From positions 1 to 63,971 of IMG/VR virus record IMGVR_UViG_3300037608_000035: 63,971 nucleotides of DNA; one strand, 5' to 3'. Both the position numbers and the translations under genes were made by a program. Source of the stretch: a virus. Lineage: Duplodnaviria; Caudoviricetes. Shown piece after piece: positions 33,601 through 58,987 of this stretch. The notes beneath the pieces are model-generated. The model was not told where the DNA came from and searched no databases. It saw only the letters and a list, made by a program, of their open reading frames with translations. The stretch's first letter is position 1. Each line of letters opens with the position of its first letter.

Positions 33601-33601
33601 T

Positions 33602-42241: not shown

Positions 42242-45200
42242 ATGGACGAGACAACGCGCAGCCCGATGACCGTATCAAAGTCTTTCTTTGAGGACATCAC
42301 GAAGGACGTTCCCTCTCCCGTCTCGAAGGATTTTCTTGACGCTATTTCAGCACCATCGGAACCCGCCCCAGCACCGGCAGCATCGGCCCGCTATGAAATG
42401 GCCGCTCCGGGGGATATAGCGGAAGCTGTCGGATCTGTCCTGGAGGTGCCTTTCAGGGCTCCCTTGCAGATCGCCGGATCAGTCGCGAGCGCGATCAGAG
42501 GCGGGGATAAGGCAGCCATAGCCGATAAAGATTCTTTTCTGACAAAGATCATTGATACGGCAAACAAGGACGCAGAAGAGTATCAGCAGAAGTACGCAAA
42601 TAACCGCGTTGTTCTTGCTCCCCTGTCCCTATTGGGGGCACCTGACGACATTACGACTCAAACCCTTACACGCTTCCCCCAGCAAGCTGCCTTTTCAGCG
42701 GTAAGCGCGGGGGCTGGTCTCGCGGCTGGTCTTGGTACGGCCGCGGCGACGACCCTTGCCGGGGCTCCGCTTGCTGCACCATTCACGGGGCGGGCGGCCG
42801 GTATGGCGGCCTCCGGCGGGGCAGCTTACCGGATGCAGAAAGATAACTCAGCGAAGGAACTCTTTGAAAAACTGAATGAGAGCAGCATGAAAGCGGCTGG
42901 CCGGGCCATGACGCCGGAGGAGTGGAGCACCGCCTATGACAGGAACGAGGGACACCTGATCGAGCAGGGCATCTCAGAAGCCATTCCAGAAGCCATCGGG
43001 AACCTCCTCGGCTTCGAGCTATTCTTCGGAGTGGCCAAGAATGTGTTTGGAAAGCAGCTCGCGAAGTCCGTCATCGGGAAATCTCTCGATAAGTATGGCG
43101 CAGCGGCGGTCGGCAAGTTTATGGCCATACAGGCAGAAGAGCAGCTCACAGAGACATGGACCCAGCAATGGCAGCACAATATCGACGTGGAAATGGGCCT
43201 GAAGCCTGGAGAAACGAAGCGGTCATGGACCAGCTTTGACGACCTCGCGCAGTCCAACAAGGAAGTGTTTGCCGACATCTTCCTGCTTACTGCGGTGATG
43301 GGCGGCGGCGCTCATGTGACCGGGCGCGTCATGGATAAGGTGAATGAAAACAAGGCGGCCCAGCTCGTTAAAGATACGGTGAAGGAAAACAAGCTGGAGT
43401 CCATTCCGAACGAGTTCCTGCCGTCCATCTATCAGCACGCCCTGGATCTCTCGACCAAGAGACCGGCCGACAAGGACTTGGCCACGGCCTCTGAGGCTTT
43501 CACGAAGGAAATGGACCGTCGCGGCATTGATTATGACATGACGGCAAAGTTTTCCGAATACCTGAAGCTGGATGAGAAAATTCGGGGCGACGAATCAACC
43601 GGGGAGGATGTGGCAAAATGGGCCTCGCTGAGGGATGAATTCAAGGAAAAGAACATCAGCCCCGACCTTTATAAGGGATATTTGGAATATCAAGCGGACA
43701 TCAACAAAGCCAGGAAGTTGTACGGCAAGGAGTCTGAGCCGGAGCGGAAAGAGTTTAACCGGCTGGTTGACAGGATTGCAGCCAAGGCTCAATGGCTGGG
43801 CCTTCCTGAAGAGGCACTTGATAAGACAGGTATAGAGAAGGGGGGCGTCGTTCGGAAGCCTCTGGAGCCCAAAAAAGGCGCGGCGCGGGATATTCTGACC
43901 GAGGGTGAGCCCGCCGTCCGGAAGAACCTCGTCACGGCAAAAGACATTTTGACCGAGGGTGACATCAACATTCAGTCCGAAGAGGACTTGACCCCTGAGA
44001 ATCTGGCCGCGATTGACAAGAAACTGGAGATCGCAGGCACAGGTGGTAAGAGAGGCCCGGAAGGCGGGGGTGATGTTTTCAGCCGGATGCCAGATGATAC
44101 ATTGCGGGGAATGGCTGATCAGGGCGTCGCGGGGGCAAAAGCTGAGCTCAAGAGAAGGGCGGCAGCTCCCGACGACAAGGTGCTGGACCTCACCGGAGCG
44201 CCGGGGACCGAAAAGCCAGCCGATTTACTCCCCTCGATAGTCGCTGGGGAATCGGACTCCTTTGAATTCCCGGAACATTTTACTCCGCAGGACATGGGTG
44301 ATCTATGGGATGACCTATACACCGCCAGCGAGGAAATCGCCCAGAGGAACAAGCCGAAGATCGACGCCCTGAAAGAAGAGAGAAAGAAGCTGGGGAGGGA
44401 TGAGGCGGCGAAGGCTCGCAAAAAGGCGATTGATGAGGAGATCGGAACGCTGGAGTCCGAGTCTCAATTTGTCTCCTATCATGCTGAGAACGCCTTCCAG
44501 GCGGCGCACGATAAAGTCACCAAGGCGGTGGTAGCCGGGTTAAAGAAAGAGGGCATCGAGCTCAGCGAGGACGAAATAACCGATCTGCCCGATACCATTA
44601 CGATGCTACAAGACGGCCGCCAGAATCCGGAGGGATGGAACAAGCCCCTGATTCAACAGGCGGTCGAATATATCAAGGGGGAGCGGGAAGAGGGAGCGCC
44701 GAGAGGAGCGGAAAAGTCGGCCAAGCAGGAATCAGACGAAGCGGTCGCGAAATACCGGAAAGAGGGGCATGACATCAATGATAACGGCGTTTACAACAAC
44801 CCCGAAAAGATTGTTGTTCCCTTCAGTAAGGCGGCCAAGCGCACAGGGGAGATAAAAATAGCAGCAGCCCCTGATGGTTTCCACCTTGGCGTTAGCATTC
44901 ACAAGAATTACGGTGATTCTGAGGGCATGGGATACGCTCCGGCGATTGGCCAACAGATATACGCAACACGGGATGAGGCGATTAAAGCAGGGATCGCCGT
45001 AATCAAGGGGCGCACAAAAGACGTTGACCCCCAGGGGAAGGCCGCCATCAAGGACATTGAGAATTTCGAGAAGGGACTGCCCAAGGAGATCAAGGCTGCC
45101 GGTACTGGGGGCAAGCGCGGGCCGACCGAAAAGGTCGAGGAGAAGAAAAAAGAGACCAAGCCAGAGGAAAAAGAGGCCGACGGGAAGGCTGCCAAGGCCA

Positions 45201-48200
45201 AAGAAGAAGCTGAAGCCAAGGCAAAAGAGGAGGAGAAAAAGGCCCGGGCAGTAAAGAAGTATCTGCTCGAACACATTGACGAGGCTATCGAGACACGGAG
45301 AGCATACGAGAAAAAGGGGATGTACGAGGGCGAAGAGTCTCCCATGTACGTCATTATTGACGTTCCTCTGGATGGGAAATTTAAGATTCTCAACACCGTT
45401 GAATACTTGGAGAACTTCAAAAAGAAGGTCGCCCAGTTAAAGGTCACGGCGGCGCTGAATAAACTCCCACAGCACTCCGGCAAGCCCGTGGGCAAGTCCA
45501 CGGACCAGATTACAAAAGAAGCCGAGGCTGAGGTCAAGAGCTATTGGGATAAGCGGGCCGAAATAAAGGAGAGGTACGAATCCATCCCTGACCAGATCTC
45601 CGCTGCGGAGAAGCGGGTCGCCAAATATCAGGAGATTATTCGCCAGCTCGACAATAAAGAGATCACGCTTAAACAGCTTGGTGAGCGAGCGAAGGCCGCC
45701 TCAGACGCAGACAACGCAGACACCGACGCATGGAGGGATAGCTGGTTCGGCAAGACACCTACTTATAACGATGTCACGGAACGGCTAAGGAATATCGAGA
45801 AGCAAGTCCGCGAGCTCAAGGAAAGTGGTCCGGAAATCGAAGCCCAAATGAAGGAACTCTTTCCCGGCCTCTGGAAAGAAATGTTTGGAGAAGGGGCGGC
45901 GAAGACAACCCCTGAGATCCCGCCCCATTCTGTCACAAAAGTCAAGTCTGCCCAGGTTGGTGACAATTATATCGCTACGGTGAGCGAAGGCCCACACAAG
46001 GGCGTTATCGGGACGAGCCCGCACTCTAAAGAGCAAGCTGTTGATGATATGATGCGGGCGATTAAGAGGCGTGAAGAAACGGGAACGAAAAACCTGCCCG
46101 ACGAAGAAGAGATCAAGGCGGCGGGGACCGGTGGGAAGAGGGGGCCGGTAGGCGAAGCGGAACCGCGCACCCCGCGGGTCATGGGCCGCGAGGCGTTTCT
46201 GTCGGGTGATCAGCGCGTTGCCCCGGCTGGCCTGGATGCGGAGAATAAAAAAGAATGGTATCGCGGGTGGGATGCGGCAAACCTCGAAACCCCGGAAACA
46301 AAAGCCGACATCCTGAAGGAGATCTCCGAGATTTCCGATGATGAGCTGGACGCGCTGCTCGACATGCCGGAGAAGAAAGAGACACCCCCGAAGACGACAA
46401 ACGAAGCCGTCAAGAACATCTTTGCCGCTGCCAGGGATAAACAAAAGGGCAATATCCCGTCAGCGCAACCCAAGGCTCTCGACGACATCCTGGCCGATGT
46501 CGCCAAGGAGGGGGTCGAAGGCGCAGGAGAAGCCCTGAAGGGTCTTTATGAACTGTTCGGTGGGGCGTCCCTGAAGTCTTTCCCCGGTGGGTTTGATGAG
46601 GACACCTACCTGAAAGCGAAGCCCCACTTTGAGGCGGCGCTTGATCATTTCATAAAGGTGGGGAAGGGGCTTCGGGAGTTTGCCGCGACCATCGTGGTTC
46701 AGTTCGGCGATGCGATCCGGCCATACCTCAAACAGTTCCTGAAAGACAGGAGGGATGGGGTCACGGAAGAAAAGGCTGACGAAGAGGGTGAGGTAATCGA
46801 CCTTGACGAGAACACCGGGAAGGGGGAGGGGGGAGCCCGGACGCGCCGGAAGCTGACCGACCAGGAGAAAGCCGAGAAAAAGGCCAAGGAGGAGGCCGCC
46901 GAAGAAAAGAAGGCCCGGAAGGCCGCGATGGGCGAATTCAAGAACGTCGGCTATGTCTATGATCCGGAGAAATTGAATCAGAAGATAAAGGATAAACCAC
47001 CCAAGTCCGCGGCGAAGATCATCCTCGACGAAATGGTCCCTGGGAAATTATGGGCGATTGACTTTCCCGAAGGCGCGACGCCGGGTGTCGTCCGGGTAAA
47101 GGATCAAATACAAAAGTATCTCCTGACGTTCAAAGAACACCTTGCCGAAGACCGGGACCGGCTGCGCTATGTGTCCGGCAAAACTATAGAAGATAAGATC
47201 GAACACTGGCTCAGGTTCCGTGACGGCTCTATCGACATGCTCAAGGAATGGGCGAGCGATTACGGGAAGACCATTCAGCCCTTCATTGATTGCTTTAACG
47301 GGCAGGCAAGCATCACGAATGTTATTTTTCGGTTACAGGATACCGTGCTGTTTGGAGCCCGAAAAGAAGATGGAACCTTCCCTTCGTATGGAGATCGACC
47401 AAACAATTTCCACGGTATTGTGACCAACCGCAATTATGTTGATAGGCCGCACAGTCTTTATACTTTCCTGACCGACTCCTGGCAGCGGCTACTGGCCGAT
47501 GAGAATGACATCCTGCTTTCGGAGATCGACATCAACAAACGCGGGCGCAACAAGATGGTGGTTCGCTCCGGCCTTCCCGATTACCGGGAGGGTGTCGAGC
47601 TGAAAAAGACCGAGGACTTTCAGGCACCTTTCGGATTCAAGGGCGTCGGCTTCGGAGAAGAGGGATGGATCAACCAGGAAGAGCGCAACCGCGTCATCCC
47701 GGCGGCGTATGATGCCTTCAAGGATCTGGCGGCAACCATCGGCGCACCCGATAACGGCATGAGCCTGGGCGGCGACCTGGCCGTGCAGTTTGCTAATTTG
47801 GGGCACAAGGCAAAGGGCGCGGCTGCGGCATACTTCCCCACTGTCCAAACGATCAACTTCACCCGTGACAATGGCGACGGAACTATGGCCCACGAATGGG
47901 GTCACGGGCTTCACGATCTGGCCTCTGCGGATGCAAAAGCAGAAATAAACGCTGTTATCGAAACATTCTACCATGTCTATGACTTCGATGCCGGGACCCG
48001 CCTGGTGGATGATCTGCTCGCAAAGGATTCCATGTTTCTCAAGCGGATGGTCTCCAATAAAAAACAGGTGCGGATCGAGGCGGTAAAGAACGAGGTAACG
48101 GATAGGTTCGAGGATACAGTAAGGAAAAAAACCGATTACTATAACACCGCAGTGCAGATGGATGCGGACTACACCGCCCGGAAACAGGAGATGTGGGCCA

Positions 48201-51200
48201 GGGCGTTCGAGGCGTACATCTACGATACATTGCCCGGCAAGAACAATTACCTGGTCAACGATTTCGTCGCTGCCGGAAGGGTAGGCGGCAAGGCCGGTGT
48301 CGGGACAAGGCTGGTATATCCTGCGGGAAAGGAACGCGAGACGTTCAATGCGACCATCAAACACCTGCTTGACGGTCTGGTTTGGGATGAGTCCGGGAAG
48401 CCGTCCCTCAAGGATGATTACGTCCCCATTGAAAAGGCTCACGAATTGCTGCTTCAGCTCCAGTTGAGATACCTTTTGGAACAGGTGGAGGCGCGATATA
48501 CGGCGATCTGGGCGTCCGAACCATCAAAGGATGGTTATTTCTGGTATCGTTATGACGAGACATCATTCGGACCGATGATGCAGCCGGACGGGTATGAAGG
48601 ATATGACAAAGCATTCACGTCGGAAGGGCAGAACGGCTCCGGGGCGGTTTGTTACTTGACACAACTGCATCCTGATGATATATTAGATTACAAGCTGACG
48701 AATATCCAGTACGAGGGTGAAAACCCGACTTACATCTCCAAGGAAAGGGGTGGTATCAATGGGGGTCTTTCAAGCGAAGGCGAAGAAGCACTGGAAGGAG
48801 AAACTGCCAAGCCTGACCGCAGCCCTGATGAAGAAGGGGACATTCGATCAGGAGACCGAGAGGGCGGCGAAGATGGCGAAGGCGGAACTTTCGTCCCTGG
48901 TAAACAGAGGGGCGCAGTACAACGCGGCGATGGAGATAGTGCTGAAGGAGTACATACTTCTCCCGCCGGAAACTACCGAATAACCGATCCCACCTTAAAC
49001 GATCCGAAATCAGTACCCGTCCGGTTCAGTCTTAATTTATCTGCTGTCAAATTACTCAATCTCATAGAATCAGAAGACAGATTGGCTTCGTCCGGAACAG
49101 TCTCGTTCGGGGAAGCTCCTCCCGGCGGATGGACAGAAGCCGATAAGGTTCCTGAAAACCAACGAACGATCAAGGCGTCAATAAACGAAAAAGACATCCT
49201 GGCTCAGTATAGCGGTTGGGGCGGCATGTCGGAGCTGTTTGCCTATGAACCCACTGCTGCATGGGCGGGCAAGGCAGAACTTCTCAAGGCCGAGCTCACT
49301 GATGCCGAGCTGCGGGATGCAGCATCATCGTCAACCTCTTCCTATTATACCCCCGTTCCTGTCGGTCAATTCATGTGGAAGCTGGCGCAACGCCTTGGTT
49401 TCACGAATGGTGTCGTGCTGGACCCGGCGACCGGAGCAAACGGCCTGTTTCTTGGGACTATGCCAGCGGACCTTGCACATGGGACGGCGTTGCAGGGAAT
49501 CGAAATGGACACCCTGAGTGCCCGCATTGCCTCGAAGCTGTACGGGCTGGCCTCCATCGAGAACAAGGCATTCCAGGACGTGAAAAAGCCGAACAACCGG
49601 TATGACCTGACCATCACCAATGTCCCGTTCGAGAGAATTACGCCGACTGATCTGAAGCACAACAAGGGCGGGCATAGCCTCCACAACTATTTCATCAACA
49701 AGATGCTCAACCTGACGGCTCCGGGCGCGTTGAGCATGATGATCACCACGTCAAACACGCTGGATACCGTTGGCGCACACCTGACAGAATACGCAGAGAA
49801 GGCGCACTTTGTGGGTGCGATCCGATTGCCTTCGGGCATTTACAGCGCCACGAAAGTAGCGACGGACATCCTTGTGTTCCGAAAGAAAATAGAGGGTGGC
49901 AAGTTCACGGGCATCCCCGTCGAGGAATGGACGACCGCGGGTGAGGATGAATCAACCGGACTGACTATCAATAATTACTTCCTCAAACATCCGGAGATGG
50001 TTGCCGGGAAACTGGAAAAAATCACCGGAAGATTCGGGAACGAGGGTCTGCGGGTAGTCGGCGAGGGCGATTTGCAGGCCAACCTGGAGAGGATCGCCGC
50101 CGCATTTCCGGATAAGATCGTTGAACGCGAGGCAGTCAAAGAAGCCAGGTCGATTGATGACATTATTTCAGCGCCCGGAACCGTCAAAGAGGGCGGCGCA
50201 TACATCAATGATAAGGGCGAGGTCTGTGAGAAGATTGATGGTGAGGAAGTAAAACTACCAGTCGCAACGGCCAGCGAACAGAAGAAGGCCGCGATTGCCC
50301 GTGGGTATGTCAATATTCTGGATCAAGTGCGGGCAACGCTGAGGGCGCAAAAGACTGAGACGGATGACGCGGTTGTCAAGGCAGAACAGGCCAAACTCAA
50401 AAAGTATTACGATCACTTCGTCAAGAAGTTCGGTCCGGTCAACGACCCGAAGAACCATGACGTGTATGTCGATTATACTGATTCCGCCTGGGTTATCGCC
50501 CTGGAAGAGTATGACCCGGATACGGGCAAAGTCACCAAGATCGCGGACATCTTCACCAAAAACATCACCGGCATAGCCTCTCGCCCGAACAGCGCGGATA
50601 CCGACCATGACGCCCTGGCGATGGCCCTGGACGAGTTCGGGTATCCCAACCTTGAGTACATGGCGCGGCTGCGAAATTCGGATGTCGAGTCTGTCGCAAG
50701 AGGCGTTGCCGATAAGATCATCGAGAACCCTGAGACCGGATTCCTTGAGACAATGGATGAATACCTGTCCGGCAACGTGAAGCGAAAGCTGGCCGTCGCC
50801 AGGGACATGGCGCAGTCCAACCCTGAATATGCCCGCAATGTGTCCCTGCTTGAGGCGGCGCAACCGCCGGAGATCCCCCAGCACAGAATTACCGCCCGCA
50901 TCGGCGCGTCGTGGATCAGCCCCGAGCACCTGGCGGAGTTTGTGGGAGACAAGATGGGACTGCGGAACCTCCACGCAGTCTTTAATTTCAGCCCGGTTAG
51001 CAATGAGTGGTCCATGTCGTTCCGCGGGAAGGAGCAATACCGTGGCTACAGTAAGGGGTTCGGAGAAAACAAGGCCGAAGTGCAGCGGCAGATAGCTGCG
51101 GCAAAGCGGAGCATTGAGGCGACGACGGTATGGGGCACCGAGCGCATGGATTTCTTTGAGCTCATGAAGTGCGCTCTGATGGGGAAGCGCCCGCAAGTCA

Positions 51201-54200
51201 CATATACTGTCGATAGAAAACAATTCCTTGACGAGGTTGCAACCCAGGCCGCTGAAGTAAAGCTCCAGGACATTCAGTTGGAATTCGGTCGCTGGCTGTT
51301 TGCTGAAACAGAGCGGGCGGATCAGGCCGTCAAGCGTTTCAATGACATCATCAATACTTCCATCCCAATGAAGGCGGATGGATCTCACCTTACCTTCCCC
51401 GGTAAAAGCATGTGGATGGTGACGCCAAAGGAAAAGGAAGCCCTCGGGATTACTGATGCGCTGACATTCTACCCGCACCAGATGAACGCGACATGGAAAT
51501 ACTTGAAAAACGGAAACCTCTATCTCGGCCATGAAGTCGGGACGGGTAAAACGGTGACGATGGCCCTGATCGCTATGGAGGCGAAAAGACTCCGGGGAAA
51601 GAAAAAGGTCCTTTACGTCACCCTGAATGATTCAACTATGGGGCAGGCGGTCCAGGAGATCAAAAACCTCTACCCGATGGCAAACATCTTGCCCGTGCGT
51701 GTTTCTACCAATGAGCAGCGCAAGCAGAGATCGCTTCAGAAAATCGCCCTGAACGATTTCGACATAGCGATTATGAGACAGCAGGACCTTGACCGGATCG
51801 GCCTGTCGCCGGAATCGGAAAGGGTGTTTATCGAAGAGGAGATCCTGGAGCTGCGGGAAATTCTTGAAGAAGCCAAGAGGGACGGAGCGCGGATTCTGGA
51901 ACAGGACATTCAGGTCCAACTACACGCTCTGGAGGAAAAGCTAAAAGCGCCGAGTGTCCATGACGAAGCAAAAAGAAAGAACCTTTTCTTCGACGACCTG
52001 GGGATCGACCTTATGATCGTGGACGAGGCCCACAAATATAAAAACGTCCCGTATGCCACCCGGCTGACCAGGATCACCGGCCTAAACCCTGTGGGGAGTC
52101 CAACCGCAAAGGCTTTTTTTCGCAAGACACAATACATGAACGCCCAGTTCCCAAAAAAGGACGGGGTCGTCCTGGCGTCCGGGACGGCTTTGTCGAATTC
52201 CATCGCCGAGATGTACAACATCCAGCGGATGCTTCAGCCCCAGGAGGTAAAGAGGCAAGGGGTGTGGTCGTTTGATCGCTGGATTGCCAACTACGGTGAC
52301 ATGGGATCTCAGTTAGAATGGGACGGAGCCCGCGGGCAATACAAGGTCATCACCACGAACCGCCGGATCGTCAATGCGGGGCGGCTCCTGGCTACGGCAT
52401 ATCAGAATGTCGATAGCGTTCGGGCAGACGATACGCCTGTCAAGAGGCCGATTATCCGGGGAGGGGAACCGCAACGGATAAAAGTGCAGCCCAACCAGTA
52501 TGTCGAGGATTACAAACGGATCATCCTGGAACGGTGTGCCGCATTAGAGGCGGACCCGAAAAATGCCGAATATGAGGGCGTCCCCGACAACATGCTCCGT
52601 ATCATCTCCAATATGAGCAAGGTGGCCATCGACCAGCGCCTTGATCACCACTATACCAACACGGAGATGCAGCAGGATTCAAAGATCGCCGCCGCGTCGC
52701 AGATCATGTATCGGCGATGGAAAGAAGAGGCAAAGCACAAGGGCGTTCAGCTTGTCTTCGCAGATCTGGGCATCCCCCGCAAATACGCGGATAAATTCAA
52801 GTATAAGACCGAAGGTGAAATCGCCCTATTAAGCCCTGAAGAATTGATTGTTTACAATGAAGAGATGTTTGAGCACGATGGCGCATCTACGGGGTGGAAT
52901 ACATACGAAGGGTTAAAGAAGGAGCTGGTGAAATTAGGGATTCCCCAAAATCAGATCGCCTTCATTCATGACGCCGACCATACCAACAAAGAAAAGAAGG
53001 CGGCCAATCTTCGCTCCCTCTTCAAGAAAGTCAACGCTGGCGATATTCGTGTCCTGATCGGGTCCACCAGCAAGGCGGGCACAGGGGTCAACATTCAGGG
53101 CCGGGTGTCGGACATTCATCATCTTGATGTGTGGTGGAATTTCTCTGCATGGGAGCAGCGCAACGGGCGTGGCATCCGGGCCGGGAATCTATATGCCAAC
53201 GAGGGGATGCCAGGAACCTATATCTGGAACTATGTCACCGAGACAACGGTGGACGCGACCCGGTGGGACAAAGTCTTTGCCAAGGGGAAGGTGCTCAATG
53301 CCGTCTTGGGCGGAGACATCAACCTCGACATTATCGAGGACATAAGCGACGAGACCATGAGCGCGAAGATGATGGCGGCTGAAGCCTCGGGCGATCCGCT
53401 CATGGCTACCCAGGCTACCTTGCTCCAGCAGGTGCAGGGGCTTCGGTTCGAGCAGGCCGCCCATCTCGACGTTGTTCGACGGTCGAAAATGGACCTGGCC
53501 GCAATCCCCGGGCGGATTGAAGCCTTAGAGAAACGCATAAAAGATTACCAACGCAGCCGCGACATTATGGACAAGGTGACAGCGGTGCGGTTTGTCGGTG
53601 ATGACAGGGCGCTGGTGCTGGAGAAGCACGGCAAGGAGATAGCCGAGGCGCTTGAAAAAGCAATCCTGACCGATCCCGGCTCATGGCCAGAGGATAAAAA
53701 GGCTGCCCTGTTGGTGTTTGGGAGTCACACAGAGCGGGATGTCGTCGAAGAGGTAGAGGATAAGGACGGGGGGAAAAAGGAAAAGAAGGTGAAAAAATAC
53801 GCCTTTACCCCACTTCCCGTCAAGGCCGATATTGAGGGAGCGGAAAGAGATCCCTATGCGCGGTGGCTTAAAATCTCTGGGGGCATCCTGAGCTCTGTCC
53901 GGAAACTGGCCGATATTAAAATTGACAAAGACAAGAAGGCCGAGGTCGATGTCAGGGCCAATATCTCCCGAACAGTGACGGAATATCTCTCACGCCTGGA
54001 TGCGGATGAAACAGCCGCAAAGGAATCCATAGCGGAGCTCAAAGGCAACGAACCGAAATTGGAGAAGGTCATAGACACCCCCTGGGCGAAAGTAGATGAG
54101 CTGGCGACAAAGGACAGGGAGCTGCGTGAGGTAGAGGCGCAGATGGCCGCGAGAGGGGTTAGCGTCGGAGATCCTGAAACCGGCATTCCAATAGATAAAT

Positions 54201-57200
54201 ATAAGGGCATTGTCCCTGTCCTTGAGGATGTGGCGGATAAAGACGAATGGTCGTTTTATGAAGGGATCGGTTACCCGCGACAAAACGCGACGATTGGCAT
54301 CAGCAAGCCGACCGATCTCAGCCGTTTTCTAAAAAGCGGAAAGCTCAAGCCCCGCATAGCATCTCAATATAACGCACCCGACAGCCTGCAAGCCTTGAAT
54401 GGAGGAAAGCCGATAACCCCTGCGACGGGACCGGTTGCCTATACCGTGATCAACAATGAAACCAGGTTTTGGGTCCCCGCCGGAACGACCTTCCTGACCG
54501 TTGATCCGATTCAGTGGAATTTACTGCAAAGGATCATCGGGAAAGAGGGTTCGTGGCATTATAATGATCGAGGCACAGGCGAGCGATATTTTGTCCATGT
54601 CAACGCGACCGGTGGAAGGGACGCATTTATCTGGGCGAAACAGGAGAGGCATGTGCCCCAGGGCGTCAAGGACATTGGTGACAAGGCTGCGAATCGTGCA
54701 ATTGCCCAGGCTTCAATCCAGCAGAGGGGAGTTAGAAGGAACGCCCTCACCTTGGACGCCGTCCAATCCCTCTTCCCCGGGCAGCAGGTCGCACAGGACG
54801 GTGAAAACTTTACCGTCACTCTTAAAAATGGACAATCTGCGACCATATATGGCGTGGCCGCAATCGCCGAGAATTCCATAACCTTAAGGGCGGGATACAG
54901 CCAGGAGAAGTTGGGGCCGAAGGAGTTTATTGCCGGATCGTTTGAGGGGTTTGACGTTCCGGGTTGGGGCATTATCAAGATTGTTAGGGACAACGCAAAT
55001 GCGCCGTTTACCCTATCCCATGAGTCCGTCCATTGGCTTGAAAAGCTGGGGGTCATTGCTCCGGCTGACAAGGTGATCCTGAACGCCCGCATCCAGAAGG
55101 AAGGGAAGTGGGACAAAGATTTGAGCGGAGAAGAGAACCGGGCGAACTGGCTGGCTTCATTCGTGAATGGGCCGAAACCGACACCGAACGCTCTCGCGCA
55201 GCTCTGGCAGAAGATTCAGGACTTTATCGCCCGCCTCGTGGGGATCAGGACCGCCGGGATGATCGGACGGGAGCTCCAGACCGGGAAGATATTCGAGAGG
55301 GAAGCCCAGGGGACAGAAGCCGCCGCGGAGAGTTATGCCGTTGGGGATAGGTTACGCGAATCGGATATTCCAGCGGATGATGTTAAGCCGAAGTTTCTTG
55401 ATATAAAAGGGCCGAACCAGAAGATCGCGAACAAGGCGGCGTTGGTATTCATGTCGTGGCCGAAGACCGTAACAGCGGCAGACGGATCGACCATTCTCCT
55501 AAAAAATCCGGAAGGAGGATCGCTGGCGGACAGGGCGAAACATTTAATTTGGAACGATGACAAAAACGCTCTTCATATCGAGAAAGCAAAATGGTTGCCG
55601 AACGTCCCTGTTACGCTTGAAAATGCGGCGGTGCGTCTTGTTGACAGCAAGTCGGGAAACCGGGTTTATGTCCGGGCTTATCAGGACGGCATCAAACACA
55701 TGGTGGTCGTCAATCCAGAAGGCGCAGTTGTCGAGCAGGAACCATTTGAAGGGGGATTGATTACACACTTCCCATATTTGAGACCGGGACGGCAAGAGAA
55801 TATGAAAATCGACTGGGAGAGAGATGGGCTTGGGCGATCCCAGGAGAACCCCAATCCGACTTCCCCCGTCTCAACGATTCCTGGCTCTCAACGAGGGACA
55901 TTCCGAGGAAAGATACTATCCGAGGAGTCCGAAAAAGTCAAGGGAAAAGAACAATACTCTGTCCAGTCCGCTACCGTCGATAGCACGTCCCTCTTCCCAG
56001 AGGTCGAGGAACGCCTGAAGGCTGCCAAGGGGATCAAGCAGACGCCCATGAAACAGCGCATGAAGGATGCCCTTGTGGTCGGCTGGGATCATTTCACCAG
56101 ACACTTTCAGCACCTTTCGCCCGAAGAGGACGGCGCGGTGATCGACGTGCTCAGGGTGTTTCAGGATGTCCCGGCATGGGCAAAAAATGAAACAACCCAG
56201 AGGCTTTCGCGCTTCGTTGGTAAGCTCTCTCCCAGCGGCCGCGAGGTATTCGGGATGAATATCATTCTGCCCGATATGCTCCGCGACCTCGACAACGGCA
56301 CACTGACCGTGGACGACGAGGGACTCCCCTTTGGATACAAGAGCCGGGATCAGGTCCAGGAAGATTATGATCACTTCAAGGCGCTCGCCGAGGCAAACCC
56401 GGAGATCCTCGAAGCCCTCGAAAAGAGAAACGCCTTCATGGAGGACCTCACGGGCCAGCTCATCGAGCACAAGCTCCTGAAGAAGGACATGGCCAATGAT
56501 CCGGCGGCCTACTTCCATCATCAGGTTCTTTTGTATAAGAACAATGCCGAAAACCCGAATTTCGGCGTGTCCTCTCAGGACGTTCGGACCCACAGGAAGG
56601 GCTGGCAGATCGGCCGCAAGGGTTCCACGCTTGATTACAACACGGAGTATATCGAGGCCGAGTTTGAGGTCATTTCTCAGGCCCTCACCCAGATCGAGAC
56701 GGTCAAGGCTCTGAAAGAGATCGAGCGCCTGTCCGATATTAAGCCGCAGCTTGAAGCCGAGGCCAAGGCTCAGAACATGGCGACCTTCAACCGGAAGGCG
56801 CGTGAAATGGGGCTCGCCGGGATAGAGGACCCGCTGAAACCGTTCATGACGAGGATCGCCTTCGGATTCAGGAAGCTCGCGAACCTTGTTACGTCCGAGG
56901 ACGGGCTCTACGTTCCAGAGGAATTCGACGATGTCATTGAGCATATTGCCGACCAGGAGGAGCAGCGCAAGGCGGCCGAAGAGGACGAAGTGCCTTTCGA
57001 TTACGCTCCTCATCCCCGGATGTTCGCCCTGCTGAACTATCTGATCAACCACGGGGGGCCGGGCTCCATGCCCGCGGCCATGATCTTCAAAGCGATAGCC
57101 GCCCGGAACAAGTTTGTCAAGGATACCGTCGGCAAGGATTGGGTCACATACCGGGATCTGGTCCCCGAAGGGTACACGACCCACAAGCCGGAAGTGGGCT

Positions 57201-58987
57201 CTACCTTTTACTTTGCGAACTCCATAACAGATCAGGCCATTTCTCAAGTGCTGGCTGGCAATAAGACCCTGCCGGACGCCGTAAGGCAAGTGCTGGCCAG
57301 GGGCAAGGATGCCGAGTGGGTCATCAAAGAAGGACTCGCCATGACCCTTAACGAATTCCGGCCGAAGGTAGGCGACTCTCTCCCGGCGAGTATTTCAAAG
57401 GATGTGCTGACGACATGGAAGCAATGGATTCTTATGAATCCCTTCCGGGTCATCAAATACAACATCAACAATATGTCCGGCGACCTGGACATCGCAATGG
57501 CCTATGACCCGAAGATCATCACGGGGTACTTCTGGCAAGCCTTCAAGGATTTGTGGGCGACTTTCCGGGGGAAGGGCACAGAGACCCTTTCAGACGAAAT
57601 GTCCGACCTGATCAAGCGCGGCGTCATCAATACCGGCATGACCCAGATGGACATTCCCGATCTGAATAACGTAAAGGCTGTCGGCGATCTCGTTGATTTC
57701 TTTGACGGGAAGAGCAAAAACGCCCTGTCCCGCTGGTACGCGATGAACAAGAAGCTCTCCACGCTGCGGGAAAACATCCTCCGGTTGGCAGCGTACAGAT
57801 ATTTCATGGACAAGCTCAACGCTGGCGAGATCGTTTACGGGGCTTCCCGAAAGGCCGAGCTGGACGCTGTCGAAAACATCAACGCCAAGGCGGCAAAGCT
57901 GGCCCGCGAGCTGATCGGCGACTACGGCAATATCAGCCATGCCGGGCAGTATATCCGGGAGCGGATAGTGCCCTTCTTTTCATGGATCGAGATCAACGCC
58001 CCCCGATACGTCCGGCTTTTCAGAAACCTTCAGCACGAGGGCGGCGGGGCGGCTTTCACCGGAGTCATGGCATGGAAGGCGGCCAAGCTGGGGGCCAAGG
58101 CAATGGCGCTGATGACGCTGGTCATGCTGTGGAACGCGACATTTTTCCCAGACGAGGAAGATGAGCTGGGCGAGACCGGCCGGGAGCAGCTTCACCTGAT
58201 CCTTGGCCGAAGGGCCGACGGCTCGATCATAACCCTGCGCTTCCAAGGTGCCCTCTCTGATGCGCTCCAGTGGTTCGGGATGGAGAACCCTCTTGAACAG
58301 TACCGGGCGGTAAAGTCAGGGCGCAAGGGGGCTGTCGATATGACAAAGGATGTAGCCTTTTCGGGGATGAAGAAGCTGTTTCAGGGGATCAGGCCGGAGC
58401 CGAAGCTGGTTTATGAAGTGCTTTCGGGCCAGAGCTTCTTCCCCGACCCCATGCACCCACGCCCGATTAGGGATACTGCCGAGCATATCCTTCGGACCTT
58501 TTCTCTCGACCGGATTTACAACCGGGTTGCGGGGAAGCCGAAGGCGGGCGGGACGTGGGAGACCCAGCTCACCAGAGACATTATGAGCATGGTTGTGGCC
58601 GAGGCCGATCCCGGAGAGCAGGCTTACTATACCAGCCGCAAGTATATTTTCGACTGGCTGGACAAGAATAACAAGGAGAAGCCCGTCGCGCTGCCTACGA
58701 ACCGGAGCAACGCCCTCTACTATTACAAGCAAGCTCTGAAGTTCGGTGACTTCGATTCGGCTGCGAAATACCTGAAGCGGTATCAGGACCTTGGCGGTCA
58801 GATGCGCGACGTTGTCGCGAGCGTCAAGCGGGTTCATCCATTGTCCTCGCTGAAGCTGTCGGACCGGTACAAGTTTAGGCAGACATTAACTCCGGAGCAG
58901 AAACAGACGCTGGAAGTGGCGACCGCCTGGTATAAGAAGCATTATCTTGAAAGCTACGTCGAGCAAAAGAAGAGGGGGGCGATGTAG
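42242..58987 (+). CDS. Giant DarB-like polyvalent virion protein (LPD1-like zincin, N6-adenine methyltransferase, SNF2 helicase, second HExxH, PBECR-like nuclease, LPD38-like C-terminus)
   Basis: AHEWGH (~47890), YSGWGG, VLDPATGANG (~49415), NVPF (~49620), HEVGTGKT (~51530), DEAH (~52022), QRNGRGIR, HESVH (~55020); AAGGAG RBS. Confidence 0.88.
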   Translation: MDETTRSPMTVSKSFFEDITKDVPSPVSKDFLDAISAPSEPAPAPAASARYEMAAPGDIAEAVGSVLEVPFRAPLQIAGSVASAIRGGDKAAIADKDSFLTKIIDTANKDAEEYQQKYANNRVVLAPLSLLGAPDDITTQTLTRFPQQAAFSAVSAGAGLAAGLGTAAATTLAGAPLAAPFTGRAAGMAASGGAAYRMQKDNSAKELFEKLNESSMKAAGRAMTPEEWSTAYDRNEGHLIEQGISEAIPEAIGNLLGFELFFGVAKNVFGKQLAKSVIGKSLDKYGAAAVGKFMAIQAEEQLTETWTQQWQHNIDVEMGLKPGETKRSWTSFDDLAQSNKEVFADIFLLTAVMGGGAHVTGRVMDKVNENKAAQLVKDTVKENKLESIPNEFLPSIYQHALDLSTKRPADKDLATASEAFTKEMDRRGIDYDMTAKFSEYLKLDEKIRGDESTGEDVAKWASLRDEFKEKNISPDLYKGYLEYQADINKARKLYGKESEPERKEFNRLVDRIAAKAQWLGLPEEALDKTGIEKGGVVRKPLEPKKGAARDILTEGEPAVRKNLVTAKDILTEGDINIQSEEDLTPENLAAIDKKLEIAGTGGKRGPEGGGDVFSRMPDDTLRGMADQGVAGAKAELKRRAAAPDDKVLDLTGAPGTEKPADLLPSIVAGESDSFEFPEHFTPQDMGDLWDDLYTASEEIAQRNKPKIDALKEERKKLGRDEAAKARKKAIDEEIGTLESESQFVSYHAENAFQAAHDKVTKAVVAGLKKEGIELSEDEITDLPDTITMLQDGRQNPEGWNKPLIQQAVEYIKGEREEGAPRGAEKSAKQESDEAVAKYRKEGHDINDNGVYNNPEKIVVPFSKAAKRTGEIKIAAAPDGFHLGVSIHKNYGDSEGMGYAPAIGQQIYATRDEAIKAGIAVIKGRTKDVDPQGKAAIKDIENFEKGLPKEIKAAGTGGKRGPTEKVEEKKKETKPEEKEADGKAAKAKEEAEAKAKEEEKKARAVKKYLLEHIDEAIETRRAYEKKGMYEGEESPMYVIIDVPLDGKFKILNTVEYLENFKKKVAQLKVTAALNKLPQHSGKPVGKSTDQITKEAEAEVKSYWDKRAEIKERYESIPDQISAAEKRVAKYQEIIRQLDNKEITLKQLGERAKAASDADNADTDAWRDSWFGKTPTYNDVTERLRNIEKQVRELKESGPEIEAQMKELFPGLWKEMFGEGAAKTTPEIPPHSVTKVKSAQVGDNYIATVSEGPHKGVIGTSPHSKEQAVDDMMRAIKRREETGTKNLPDEEEIKAAGTGGKRGPVGEAEPRTPRVMGREAFLSGDQRVAPAGLDAENKKEWYRGWDAANLETPETKADILKEISEISDDELDALLDMPEKKETPPKTTNEAVKNIFAAARDKQKGNIPSAQPKALDDILADVAKEGVEGAGEALKGLYELFGGASLKSFPGGFDEDTYLKAKPHFEAALDHFIKVGKGLREFAATIVVQFGDAIRPYLKQFLKDRRDGVTEEKADEEGEVIDLDENTGKGEGGARTRRKLTDQEKAEKKAKEEAAEEKKARKAAMGEFKNVGYVYDPEKLNQKIKDKPPKSAAKIILDEMVPGKLWAIDFPEGATPGVVRVKDQIQKYLLTFKEHLAEDRDRLRYVSGKTIEDKIEHWLRFRDGSIDMLKEWASDYGKTIQPFIDCFNGQASITNVIFRLQDTVLFGARKEDGTFPSYGDRPNNFHGIVTNRNYVDRPHSLYTFLTDSWQRLLADENDILLSEIDINKRGRNKMVVRSGLPDYREGVELKKTEDFQAPFGFKGVGFGEEGWINQEERNRVIPAAYDAFKDLAATIGAPDNGMSLGGDLAVQFANLGHKAKGAAAAYFPTVQTINFTRDNGDGTMAHEWGHGLHDLASADAKAEINAVIETFYHVYDFDAGTRLVDDLLAKDSMFLKRMVSNKKQVRIEAVKNEVTDRFEDTVRKKTDYYNTAVQMDADYTARKQEMWARAFEAYIYDTLPGKNNYLVNDFVAAGRVGGKAGVGTRLVYPAGKERETFNATIKHLLDGLVWDESGKPSLKDDYVPIEKAHELLLQLQLRYLLEQVEARYTAIWASEPSKDGYFWYRYDETSFGPMMQPDGYEGYDKAFTSEGQNGSGAVCYLTQLHPDDILDYKLTNIQYEGENPTYISKERGGINGGLSSEGEEALEGETAKPDRSPDEEGDIRSGDREGGEDGEGGTFVPGKQRGAVQRGDGDSAEGVHTSPAGNYRITDPTLNDPKSVPVRFSLNLSAVKLLNLIESEDRLASSGTVSFGEAPPGGWTEADKVPENQRTIKASINEKDILAQYSGWGGMSELFAYEPTAAWAGKAELLKAELTDAELRDAASSSTSSYYTPVPVGQFMWKLAQRLGFTNGVVLDPATGANGLFLGTMPADLAHGTALQGIEMDTLSARIASKLYGLASIENKAFQDVKKPNNRYDLTITNVPFERITPTDLKHNKGGHSLHNYFINKMLNLTAPGALSMMITTSNTLDTVGAHLTEYAEKAHFVGAIRLPSGIYSATKVATDILVFRKKIEGGKFTGIPVEEWTTAGEDESTGLTINNYFLKHPEMVAGKLEKITGRFGNEGLRVVGEGDLQANLERIAAAFPDKIVEREAVKEARSIDDIISAPGTVKEGGAYINDKGEVCEKIDGEEVKLPVATASEQKKAAIARGYVNILDQVRATLRAQKTETDDAVVKAEQAKLKKYYDHFVKKFGPVNDPKNHDVYVDYTDSAWVIALEEYDPDTGKVTKIADIFTKNITGIASRPNSADTDHDALAMALDEFGYPNLEYMARLRNSDVESVARGVADKIIENPETGFLETMDEYLSGNVKRKLAVARDMAQSNPEYARNVSLLEAAQPPEIPQHRITARIGASWISPEHLAEFVGDKMGLRNLHAVFNFSPVSNEWSMSFRGKEQYRGYSKGFGENKAEVQRQIAAAKRSIEATTVWGTERMDFFELMKCALMGKRPQVTYTVDRKQFLDEVATQAAEVKLQDIQLEFGRWLFAETERADQAVKRFNDIINTSIPMKADGSHLTFPGKSMWMVTPKEKEALGITDALTFYPHQMNATWKYLKNGNLYLGHEVGTGKTVTMALIAMEAKRLRGKKKVLYVTLNDSTMGQAVQEIKNLYPMANILPVRVSTNEQRKQRSLQKIALNDFDIAIMRQQDLDRIGLSPESERVFIEEEILELREILEEAKRDGARILEQDIQVQLHALEEKLKAPSVHDEAKRKNLFFDDLGIDLMIVDEAHKYKNVPYATRLTRITGLNPVGSPTAKAFFRKTQYMNAQFPKKDGVVLASGTALSNSIAEMYNIQRMLQPQEVKRQGVWSFDRWIANYGDMGSQLEWDGARGQYKVITTNRRIVNAGRLLATAYQNVDSVRADDTPVKRPIIRGGEPQRIKVQPNQYVEDYKRIILERCAALEADPKNAEYEGVPDNMLRIISNMSKVAIDQRLDHHYTNTEMQQDSKIAAASQIMYRRWKEEAKHKGVQLVFADLGIPRKYADKFKYKTEGEIALLSPEELIVYNEEMFEHDGASTGWNTYEGLKKELVKLGIPQNQIAFIHDADHTNKEKKAANLRSLFKKVNAGDIRVLIGSTSKAGTGVNIQGRVSDIHHLDVWWNFSAWEQRNGRGIRAGNLYANEGMPGTYIWNYVTETTVDATRWDKVFAKGKVLNAVLGGDINLDIIEDISDETMSAKMMAAEASGDPLMATQATLLQQVQGLRFEQAAHLDVVRRSKMDLAAIPGRIEALEKRIKDYQRSRDIMDKVTAVRFVGDDRALVLEKHGKEIAEALEKAILTDPGSWPEDKKAALLVFGSHTERDVVEEVEDKDGGKKEKKVKKYAFTPLPVKADIEGAERDPYARWLKISGGILSSVRKLADIKIDKDKKAEVDVRANISRTVTEYLSRLDADETAAKESIAELKGNEPKLEKVIDTPWAKVDELATKDRELREVEAQMAARGVSVGDPETGIPIDKYKGIVPVLEDVADKDEWSFYEGIGYPRQNATIGISKPTDLSRFLKSGKLKPRIASQYNAPDSLQALNGGKPITPATGPVAYTVINNETRFWVPAGTTFLTVDPIQWNLLQRIIGKEGSWHYNDRGTGERYFVHVNATGGRDAFIWAKQERHVPQGVKDIGDKAANRAIAQASIQQRGVRRNALTLDAVQSLFPGQQVAQDGENFTVTLKNGQSATIYGVAAIAENSITLRAGYSQEKLGPKEFIAGSFEGFDVPGWGIIKIVRDNANAPFTLSHESVHWLEKLGVIAPADKVILNARIQKEGKWDKDLSGEENRANWLASFVNGPKPTPNALAQLWQKIQDFIARLVGIRTAGMIGRELQTGKIFEREAQGTEAAAESYAVGDRLRESDIPADDVKPKFLDIKGPNQKIANKAALVFMSWPKTVTAADGSTILLKNPEGGSLADRAKHLIWNDDKNALHIEKAKWLPNVPVTLENAAVRLVDSKSGNRVYVRAYQDGIKHMVVVNPEGAVVEQEPFEGGLITHFPYLRPGRQENMKIDWERDGLGRSQENPNPTSPVSTIPGSQRGTFRGKILSEESEKVKGKEQYSVQSATVDSTSLFPEVEERLKAAKGIKQTPMKQRMKDALVVGWDHFTRHFQHLSPEEDGAVIDVLRVFQDVPAWAKNETTQRLSRFVGKLSPSGREVFGMNIILPDMLRDLDNGTLTVDDEGLPFGYKSRDQVQEDYDHFKALAEANPEILEALEKRNAFMEDLTGQLIEHKLLKKDMANDPAAYFHHQVLLYKNNAENPNFGVSSQDVRTHRKGWQIGRKGSTLDYNTEYIEAEFEVISQALTQIETVKALKEIERLSDIKPQLEAEAKAQNMATFNRKAREMGLAGIEDPLKPFMTRIAFGFRKLANLVTSEDGLYVPEEFDDVIEHIADQEEQRKAAEEDEVPFDYAPHPRMFALLNYLINHGGPGSMPAAMIFKAIAARNKFVKDTVGKDWVTYRDLVPEGYTTHKPEVGSTFYFANSITDQAISQVLAGNKTLPDAVRQVLARGKDAEWVIKEGLAMTLNEFRPKVGDSLPASISKDVLTTWKQWILMNPFRVIKYNINNMSGDLDIAMAYDPKIITGYFWQAFKDLWATFRGKGTETLSDEMSDLIKRGVINTGMTQMDIPDLNNVKAVGDLVDFFDGKSKNALSRWYAMNKKLSTLRENILRLAAYRYFMDKLNAGEIVYGASRKAELDAVENINAKAAKLARELIGDYGNISHAGQYIRERIVPFFSWIEINAPRYVRLFRNLQHEGGGAAFTGVMAWKAAKLGAKAMALMTLVMLWNATFFPDEEDELGETGREQLHLILGRRADGSIITLRFQGALSDALQWFGMENPLEQYRAVKSGRKGAVDMTKDVAFSGMKKLFQGIRPEPKLVYEVLSGQSFFPDPMHPRPIRDTAEHILRTFSLDRIYNRVAGKPKAGGTWETQLTRDIMSMVVAEADPGEQAYYTSRKYIFDWLDKNNKEKPVALPTNRSNALYYYKQALKFGDFDSAAKYLKRYQDLGGQMRDVVASVKRVHPLSSLKLSDRYKFRQTLTPEQKQTLEVATAWYKKHYLESYVEQKKRGAM
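48759..48983 (+). CDS. Nested +1-frame gene, TnpV-like 74-aa helical protein
   Basis: AGGAAAGGGGTGG RBS; HWKEKLP...L..KGTF...AMEIVLKEYILLPPE; G/C-ending codons while the host frame is a G/E/D linker. Confidence 0.7.
   Translation: MGVFQAKAKKHWKEKLPSLTAALMKKGTFDQETERAAKMAKAELSSLVNRGAQYNAAMEIVLKEYILLPPETTE
55818..55905 (-). ncRNA. Candidate structured small RNA (two hairpins with complementary loops)
   Basis: UCCCUCGUU/GACGGGGGA stem; UUGGG/CCCAA stem; loops CCAGGA and UCCUGG complementary; starts just downstream of the antisense promoter. Confidence 0.5.
55913..55941 (-). promoter_or_regulatory. Antisense sigma70 promoter inside the giant gene
   Basis: Minus strand TTGACT(55941-55936)-17bp-TAGTAT(55918-55913). 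Confidence 0.65.

Follow-up and report, generated by a model that had tools for sequence, protein, structure and literature searches.

A promoter-bearing antisense RNA with mutually paired loops follows a predicted RNase domain within a giant phage polyvalent protein gene

The 63,971-nt virus record IMGVR_UViG_3300037608_000035 (Caudoviricetes; hereafter the window, all positions referring to the whole record) contains a single open reading frame (ORF) of 5581 amino acids. Comparison of related loci showed that the minus strand of this ORF carries, between positions 55942 and 55825, a small-RNA gene composed of a predicted sigma-70-type promoter and a two-hairpin RNA of about 80 nt with paired loops. 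The gene is located directly downstream of the coding sequence of a domain, here named domain X, for which a BECR-like RNase fold was predicted. Both were found to be inherited as a cassette in one subfamily of domain X, and independent copies of the RNA exist in bacterial chromosomes. Judged from sequence, it is a new class of structured RNA, absent from Rfam and present in phages and bacterial chromosomes. The conserved linker peptide following domain X proved to be for the most part a translational read-through of the RNA gene. The original prediction, made from the window alone, had proposed a PBECR-like RNase accompanied by a cognate antisense kissing-loop RNA that would act as an inhibitor or tRNA-shaped decoy. 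A conserved, promoter-bearing antisense RNA of this architecture directly after a BECR-like predicted domain was indeed recovered, whereas neither membership of the PBECR families by sequence nor an obligatory coupling with domain X was borne out, since RNA-only copies and RNA-less relatives of the domain exist. The features are listed in Table 1.

Table 1. Position of the antisense RNA gene and of associated features in the window
Feature	Position	Strand	Remarks
-35 box TTGACT	55936..55941	minus	17-nt spacer to the -10 box
-10 box TAGTAT	55913..55918	minus	8 nt to GGAAU
Conserved RNA 5' GGAAU	55904-55900	minus	predicted start at about 55906-55904
RNA core	55825..55906	minus	82 nt modelled (3' end not defined); covariance model R1, 98.5 bits
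Hairpin 1, helix S1 (9 bp)	55898-55890 with 55870-55862	minus	conserved GAG and CGYUGAG in the 19-nt loop
Loop-loop (kissing) helix S2 (6 bp)	55884-55879 (CCAGGA) with 55845-55840 (UCCUGG)	minus	
Hairpin 2, helix S3 (5 bp)	55854-55850 with 55834-55830	minus	15-nt loop
Tail peptide GLGRSQENPNPTSPVSTIPGSQRGTFRGK	55826..55912	plus	sense translation of the RNA gene; predicted disordered
Domain X	55379..55825	plus	residues ~4380-4528 of the encoded protein (P0001); predicted BECR-like, metal-independent RNase; new family
Polyvalent protein gene	42242..58987	plus	single ORF with Pfam domains, containing the RNA region; end of the prophage structural module

The promoter, the two stems, the complementary loops and the twofold repeat of UCGUUGAGA that had been noticed in the window were all confirmed at their positions. 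The promoter matches the consensus at 9 of 12 positions only, and its description as near-consensus was overstated; it is one of six such sites between 50000 and 60000, a region in which shuffled sequences gave 6.1 +/- 2.2. The 87-nt antisense sequence of the window alone folded with -28.6 kcal/mol, compared to -31.1 +/- 3.3 kcal/mol for shuffled sequences (z-score +0.77), and 152 of the 200 shuffles folded at least as well. Promoter count and single-sequence folding were thus at chance level, and it was the comparison of related loci that established the element as real. This calls for caution in genome scans, as both statistics gave no sign of a real element.

The search for related loci with a protein alignment yielded 2 + 2 + 5 loci. 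Six independent DNA loci bearing the tail (the window, L002, L003, L004, L005 and L007) were compared. Among them, 95.8% of the 120 helix cells were paired, while shuffled alignments reached 78.3 +/- 2.2% (0/500), and sliding the helix partners against each other lowered pairing to 34-58%. Twelve of the 20 helix pairs changed on both sides (0/500 shuffles). An enlarged set of 17 copies, 16 of them distinct, gave 93.8% of 307 helix cells paired against 78.5 +/- 1.4 in shuffles (0/500). Both sides changed in six of the nine pairs of S1, three of the six pairs of S2 and three of the five pairs of S3. S2 was 100% paired in the six loci as well as in the 16 copies; the corresponding values were 94.4 and 91.0% for S1 and 93.3 and 92.0% for S3, the 16-copy counts of S1 and S3 leaning towards the model used for alignment, from which S2 was absent. 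When no structure was given, RNAalifold reproduced S1 pair for pair and lengthened S3 by three pairs, with compensatory changes in 14 of its 23 pairs; the pseudoknotted S2 is beyond what this program can predict. Covarying stems, which had been anticipated in homologs, were therefore obtained for three helices in six loci and 16 distinct copies. A weak closing stem that had also been proposed lies partly upstream of the predicted start and had no support in any alignment. The repeat of UCGUUGAGA is present twice but specific to the window, only GAG and CGYUGAG being kept across copies. The single-stranded segments conserved across the RNA copies are GGAAU, GAG, CGYUGAG and GUCGG.

Reading the same helices on the plus strand left 89.2% of the cells paired in the six loci, as compared to 95.8% on the antisense strand. 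G.U pairs numbered 27 in the minus-strand reading versus one on the other strand (binomial p 2e-7, the cells not being independent), an asymmetry which indicates that the folded strand is the antisense strand. Rfam 15 returned no match over positions 55600-56100 at E <= 10 except the unrelated sR30 (56000-56054, E 4.7), and nothing at gathering score in five other loci.

The linker following domain X had been described as unconstrained at the protein level, which was not the case. Alignment of the 37 closest representatives revealed the approximate motif GxGRSQGNPxPTPxxSTxPGxRQxEFQ directly after the ...DWER end of the domain, and the motif was conserved in 44 protein representatives, always in one frame; no translation of the element in another frame was found after domain X. 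A hidden Markov model of the tail matched 50 of 151 proteins, each at a single site (in some cases with two tandem units), and in 49 of them this site immediately follows domain X, a proportion biased by the fact that the proteins had been gathered with a query comprising domain and tail. The tail was present in 41 of the 88 representatives in which the end of the domain is complete and followed by 45 residues or more, and doubled in several (P0005, P0014, P0024, P0026 and P0030). With a predicted local distance difference test (pLDDT) score of 52-64 in the structure model, it is predicted to be disordered.

Among identical amino acids in the six loci, identical codons were used at a frequency of 0.59 in the tail (120/204) and of 0.34 in the domain (300/883). 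Analysis in steps of eight codons showed that the excess of synonymous constraint spans positions 55823-55942 only. This is exactly the proposed RNA plus its promoter, which implies that the constraint acts on nucleotides. Protein identity over the promoter region is only 0.15. The constraint ends at 55823 and does not extend into the coding sequence of domain X. The RNA had been presumed to be overprinted on the toxin gene; it does lie antisense within the giant ORF, but it overlaps the linker and not the domain.

As some helix positions fall on first or second codon positions at both sides, covariation was expected at the amino-acid level too. Pair 15.1-25.1 of S1 was compatible with base pairing in 39 of 44 proteins against 16.3 in shuffles (0/5000), with T facing S, P facing E or G, and A, D or V facing P. 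Pair 14.1-26.1 of S1 was compatible in 39 of 43 proteins (shuffles 30.4; 0/5000), and pair 8.1-20.1 of S2 in 42 of 44 (shuffles 26.3; 0/5000). These shuffles ignore relatedness, and the counts overstate independence, but several types of pair occur at each position. The outermost pair of S3 was weak (20/43 compatible versus 12.1 in shuffles). Synonymous changes in one arm of a helix co-vary with amino-acid replacements encoded by the opposite arm. The conservation of the tail peptide thus appears to stem from the RNA. Here a non-coding RNA gene is clearly overprinted on coding sequence, and RNA structure brings about, as by-products, both the conservation and the covariation of amino acids in a disordered linker.

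The reverse promoter that had been expected in homologs was also recovered. A TAnnnT hexamer is located 5-9 nt, mostly exactly 6 nt, upstream of GGAAU in 15 of the 17 copies; two copies have CAAU in place of GGAAU. An extended -10 TG occurs in 10 of the 17, and TTG at -35 with a spacer of 16-17 nt in 12 (counted from the tabulated copies). Promoter scores of at least 9/12 were obtained for 6 of the 17 copies but for 0.2% of shuffled upstream regions, with a mean of 7.76 versus 5.36 +/- 1.1 in shuffles. The best -10 boxes (TGgTAGAAT) were found in stand-alone copies. The pattern predicts a sigma-70-type promoter positioned to start the conserved RNA. Downstream of the RNA no reading frame was open across the loci, indicating that the RNA is not the leader of a nested gene, and no conserved intrinsic terminator was recognised by eye after it. 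A 457-amino-acid antisense frame with a TTG start lies on the minus strand within the giant gene (55916-57289) and is terminated by the TAG contained in the antisense -10 box; the composition of the coding strand probably accounts for this frame.

Domain X was investigated by sequence and structure comparison. An exhaustive search with the domain plus linker as query returned 157 cluster representatives at E <= 1e-3, 98 at 1e-10 and 41 at 1e-30, the relatives being parts of proteins of up to ~4900 amino acids or solo proteins of 150-190 amino acids. At the sequence level, domain X is not a member of the Pfam PBECR families: Pfam returned no family for the domain of the window even at E <= 10, and none, PBECR1-5 and MuF_C included, over the corresponding region of 45 + 41 relatives. 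No PHROG or NCBIfam model matched domain X, and a sequence search of the PDB gave nothing meaningful. One relative (P0144) does contain a PBECR3 domain (residues 751-844), which is distinct from its domain-X match (551-634). Comparison by hhalign of the domain-X alignment with 15 genuine PBECR3 domains taken from genomes was not significant (probability 0.8%, E 0.071), with equivalent strands aligned, and no bridge to PBECR was found among the distant members of domain X.

The AlphaFold2 model computed from a 45-sequence alignment (pLDDT 88.0, predicted template-modelling score 0.80) displays two core helices (residues 56-64 and 74-88) followed by an antiparallel sheet (strands 92-95, 102-107, 113-119, 132-139 and 150-154). 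Foldseek gave no match in the PDB at E <= 1e-3, its best rows being CdiA-CT toxins at E 0.2. VIA-align against 48,161 chains reached a best Z of only 4.7 (colicin D, root-mean-square deviation 3.0, 77 residues aligned), and the tool's own note states that Z under 8 is no proof of a shared fold. All of its first ten rows were toxin RNases (colicin D twice, CdiA-CT five times, BrnT, HigB1 and one toxin of a toxin-antitoxin complex; Z 3.3-4.7). The chains of these rows (colicin D, CdiA-CT, BrnT, HigB) presumably share the BECR fold. RelE/ParE-type toxins were likewise listed among the top, weak fold matches (Z <= 4.7). Three matches at E <= 1e-3 in BFVD were phage polyvalent proteins named 'Nuclease' or 'LPD3', and the nearest named clusters of the ESM Atlas carried MuF_C, PBECR2 and PBECR3 (scores 0.88-0.92).

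Conservation of residues was counted over 149 aligned relatives of domain X. His62 (residue 4434 of P0001), located in helix 56-64, is kept in 142 of 143 relatives, and position 136 in the fourth strand (132-139) is occupied by Thr in 121 relatives and by Ser in another 18, hence by one of the two in 139 of 140. Further conserved positions are Lys/Arg76 (143/145), Thr86 (145/146), Tyr108 (138/143) and His114 (138/141). The PBECR clade of RNases is characterised by a His in the N-terminal core helix and a Ser/Thr in strand 4 (Iyer, Burroughs, Anand, de Souza and Aravind 2017, PMC5512222), and domain X displays both in its model. The domain had been taken as PBECR-like, and the layout of the modelled fold, the His and the Thr/Ser agree with this; the missing Pfam match, the non-significant hhalign result and fold comparisons at Z <= 4.7 do not. 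Domain X constitutes a new family whose predicted fold is BECR-like and whose catalytic layout resembles that of PBECR. The PBECR domains (PMC5512222) also resemble it by their setting in giant phage polyvalent proteins, by the existence of solo versions and, as far as modelled, by a core helix preceding the strands, and differ from it by the absence of any Pfam PBECR1-5 or MuF_C match in domain X or in the same region of 86 relatives, and by its additional conserved Lys76, Thr86, Tyr108 and His114 and its N-terminal extension of ~50 residues.

The sequences flanking the domain-tail pair are heavily shuffled. The 150 residues upstream of domain X fell into 21 clusters among 27 proteins and the 150 residues downstream of the tail into 24 clusters among 29, whilst in eight proteins the sequence ends at most 60 residues past the tail. 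With unrelated flanks on both sides, the pair has persisted through this shuffling. Five genomes were searched with the domain profile, and all three full copies of domain X carry the RNA. Domain X itself was present in 4 of 135 genomes of the phylum to which the genome of L004 belongs, in two of them as fragments only. The claim that RNA and nuclease travel as one cassette is supported by this adjacency, but not as a strict rule, given the RNA-only copies and the roughly half of the domain relatives that lack the RNA; the coupling is frequent rather than obligatory.

Further copies were searched for with covariance model R1, which covers the 82-nt core with S1 and S3 only. The next best match within the window scored 13.1 bits. 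Among 100 loci only the known ones were matched, and the best of the ~90 unrelated ones reached 18.7 bits (E 0.16). R1 matched 6 of 135 genomes in the phylum of the L004 genome, one of which (G084) holds seven copies, and 1 of 151 sampled genomes in the phylum of the L003 genome, namely that genome itself. A 31-bit match (L148) was excluded from the 17-copy alignment since its helices were missing by eye, L001/L106 were excluded as truncated duplicates of L003, and L121, L141, L143, L150 and L155-L159 were loci already counted. Among the copies recovered solely through the RNA model, L142 and L144/L150 are accompanied by domain X and L149 by only a C-terminal remnant of it. In L144, a giant ORF of G084, two RNA units with their own promoters (1282-1363 and 1501-1582, 219 nt apart) follow a single domain X.

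Two stand-alone copies (L145 and L146, both at 1501-1583) are located in syntenic intergenic regions of the chromosomes of two species, beside a Malectin-domain gene. They represent a divergent variant with a 5' CAAU and an S3 of 8 bp, and no domain X was detectable in either genome. Two others (L152 and L153, 1210-1625) lie in a repeat of 416 bp that occurs, with 93% identity, on two contigs of the same genome. The repeat holds the RNA, a TGgTAGAAT promoter and the 3' part of an ORF of ~95-122 amino acids belonging to no known family, which is convergent with the RNA and ends 10 nt from its core; a GmrSD restriction gene is located upstream in L152. In L151, a Shine-Dalgarno sequence and an ATG ~135 nt downstream of the RNA open a frame of ~245 amino acids on the same strand, so that the RNA could sit in its 5' leader. 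No common partner gene was found among the neighbours of the stand-alone copies, including the small ORF of L152/L153. Searches of cultured phages and plasmids with tblastn found no homologous DNA. When viral contigs were scanned, two patterns based on the domain brought up no genuine locus other than L001/L106 and L002/L121, and a pattern based on the tail gave 91 stretches but no new locus.

Altogether, our analysis suggests, tentatively and with a confidence short of probable, that the RNA is an immunity factor which neutralises domain X and that its chromosomal copies are orphan immunity genes. The RNA would be transcribed from a promoter of its own and would not depend on late phage transcription; being on the strand of the integrase gene, it could be made in the lysogen. 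It would act as a type III antitoxin-like immunity factor whose compact kissing-loop fold would bind the RNase, and the stand-alone chromosomal copies would be orphan immunity genes. The wider proposal of a new toxin-immunity pairing, in which a virion-delivered RNase is neutralised by an antisense kissing-loop RNA within its own polyprotein gene and bacteria have captured orphan copies against the injected effector, is somewhat unlikely. Were it correct, the protein linker would be merely the read-through of an antidote gene. In favour of an RNA neutraliser, there is no room inside the polyprotein for a protein-coding immunity gene, and no conserved antisense ORF follows the RNA.

Known type III antitoxins consist of tandem short direct repeats located upstream and on the strand of a ToxN/AbiQ-like toxin. 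The present case is similar to ToxIN, CptIN and TenpIN in that a structured, pseudoknot-like RNA is tied to a (here predicted) endoribonuclease on a mobile element, and in that the RNA unit is doubled in tandem in some relatives (at most two units). It differs in that domain X is BECR-like without any ToxN match.

Several findings weigh against the RNA being a neutraliser of domain X. Compared with type III systems, it is a single unit located downstream, on the opposite strand, under its own promoter and within the polyprotein gene of the presumed toxin. The RNase activity of domain X is predicted only, the fold matches being weak (Z <= 4.7; Foldseek E >= 0.2) and the hhalign probability with PBECR3 being 0.8%. 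At the strict threshold, 47 of the 88 eligible representatives have no tail, and L006, L185 and L186 are matches of domain X without RNA; these RNA-less relatives imply that the domain does not need the RNA. Conversely, the RNA is present in three genomes in which domain X was not detected (metagenome-assembled genomes of unknown completeness), and no domain X is located within 1.5 kb of five strong (L145, L146, L151, L152 and L153) and two weak copies (L147 and L154). The bias of the protein set mentioned above also applies to the rule that a tail implies a domain.

It is an open question by which means phages and plasmids protect themselves from the nuclease domains of their polyvalent proteins. 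A promoter-bearing structured RNA travelling together with a nuclease-like domain is a concrete candidate answer. In the literature search, no RNA was found described with polyvalent proteins or PBECR domains, and proteolytic activation is the only solution offered in the available part of PMC5512222.

An independent RNA acting in trans and unrelated to domain X, such as an anti-defence decoy or a regulatory small RNA originating from phage or host, which entered the linker once, in the ancestor of one subfamily of domain X, and has been co-inherited by position, is a rather unlikely alternative. It would account for the intact, promoter-bearing intergenic copies beside unrelated genes (Malectin-domain and GmrSD), for the genomes having the RNA without the domain, for the sevenfold occurrence in one genome and for the domain relatives devoid of RNA; the conserved single-stranded segments would also suggest a partner of its own. 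Adjacency is, however, kept at 40-60% identity of domain X and despite the shuffling of the flanks, which is unexpected in mosaic polyvalent proteins without a functional link. Place, orientation and frame of the element relative to the domain are always the same, and every full domain-X copy in the searched genomes is accompanied by the RNA.

Less likely still is regulation in cis, in the manner of a type I antitoxin or of lambda OOP, where the RNA would pair with the mRNA of the giant gene, or with transcripts of related superinfecting phages in the lysogen, leading to cleavage or block. Perfect complementarity to the mRNA is given by construction, the RNA has its own promoter on the strand of integrase and RecT, stem-loops are typical of antisense RNAs, and antisense RNAs overlapping the 3' side are common in prophage type I systems. 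The conserved intramolecular S2, 100% paired, would nevertheless occupy the loops that normally serve for finding the target. Moreover, stand-alone copies keep structure and promoter without a cis target, and the constraint does not reach the coding sequence of the domain. Type I toxins are small hydrophobic membrane peptides (cII in the case of OOP), and their RNAs act by duplex formation. Systems such as txpA/RatA and lambda OOP share with the present one a short, promoter-driven prophage antisense RNA, convergent with its counterpart and overlapping its 3' side, here complementary to the mRNA of the plus-strand ORF. They differ in that the present counterpart is a soluble alpha/beta domain of ~150 amino acids in a 5581-amino-acid protein, that the RNA loops are held in a conserved intramolecular helix and that copies without cis target exist.

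An element acting at the DNA level, either a selfish palindromic repeat inserting in frame as the Rickettsia palindromic elements do or a cassette recombination junction folding as single-stranded DNA, is very improbable. The seven copies of G084 at coding and intergenic sites, the in-frame translation within proteins and the location at a cassette boundary would fit it; the promoter conserved at fixed spacing, the co-varying loop-loop tertiary helix and the strong G.U strand asymmetry would not. Such an element would also not be expected always to take the same frame and place after one domain family, and no other copy was found in the 64-kb window or in ~90 unrelated loci. That there is no RNA at all but a functional peptide motif, e.g. 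a protease processing site after domain X, with promoter and hairpins arising by chance, is hardly credible: conservation in one frame, chance-level single-sequence statistics and the proposal that polyvalent proteins are processed by their own metallopeptidases (PMC5512222) speak for it, whereas the constraint on synonymous sites (which differ nearly throughout among the AGTGGKRGP repeats of the same protein), the covariation of silent with amino-acid changes across helices, the intact copies in non-coding DNA and the predicted disorder of the tail speak against it.

If the RNA neutralises domain X, two more systems invite comparison. The immunity factors of colicins D and E5 and of CdiA-CT cassettes are proteins. 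Here too, a BECR-type RNase would be followed immediately by its inferred neutraliser, the two moving as a cassette, and stand-alone copies occur in genomes in which no domain X was detected; unlike in those cassettes, the partner located downstream is an RNA, encoded on the opposite strand, whose neutralising role is inferred. The pRNA of phi29, a molecule of ~120-174 nt that is restricted to phi29-like phages, has a 4-nt loop pairing and acts at the portal. It is likewise a phage RNA with two mutually complementary loops, and dimers or rings would be possible if S2 were intermolecular, but no relation by sequence or in Rfam was found.

The giant protein contains the Pfam domains LPD1, N6_Mtase (N6 DNA methylase), ResIII/SNF2 and Helicase_C. 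Genes for a P22-like portal and a capsid protein are located upstream of its gene, and those for an integrase and RecT downstream on the minus strand. This make-up and these neighbours identify it as a polyvalent protein ending the structural module of a temperate phage, and it is probably carried in the virion. No tRNA or tmRNA gene was found in the window. Two HExxH motifs are present in the protein (positions 47891 and 55019; residues 1884 and 4260), the second of which (SHESVHWLEKLG) precedes domain X by ~120 residues and could belong to a zincin-like peptidase missed by Pfam. The peptide (I/A)AGTGGKRGP occurs three times in the N-terminal third (positions 44036, 45101 and 46124; residues 599, 954 and 1295). 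Its codons differ at nearly every position among the three copies; it represents a motif at the level of the peptide, where the protein might be processed by its own peptidase. In the structural module, two adjacent large ORFs (31477-33600 and 33545-35560) both match phrog_2448, of unknown function, which suggests a tandem duplication.

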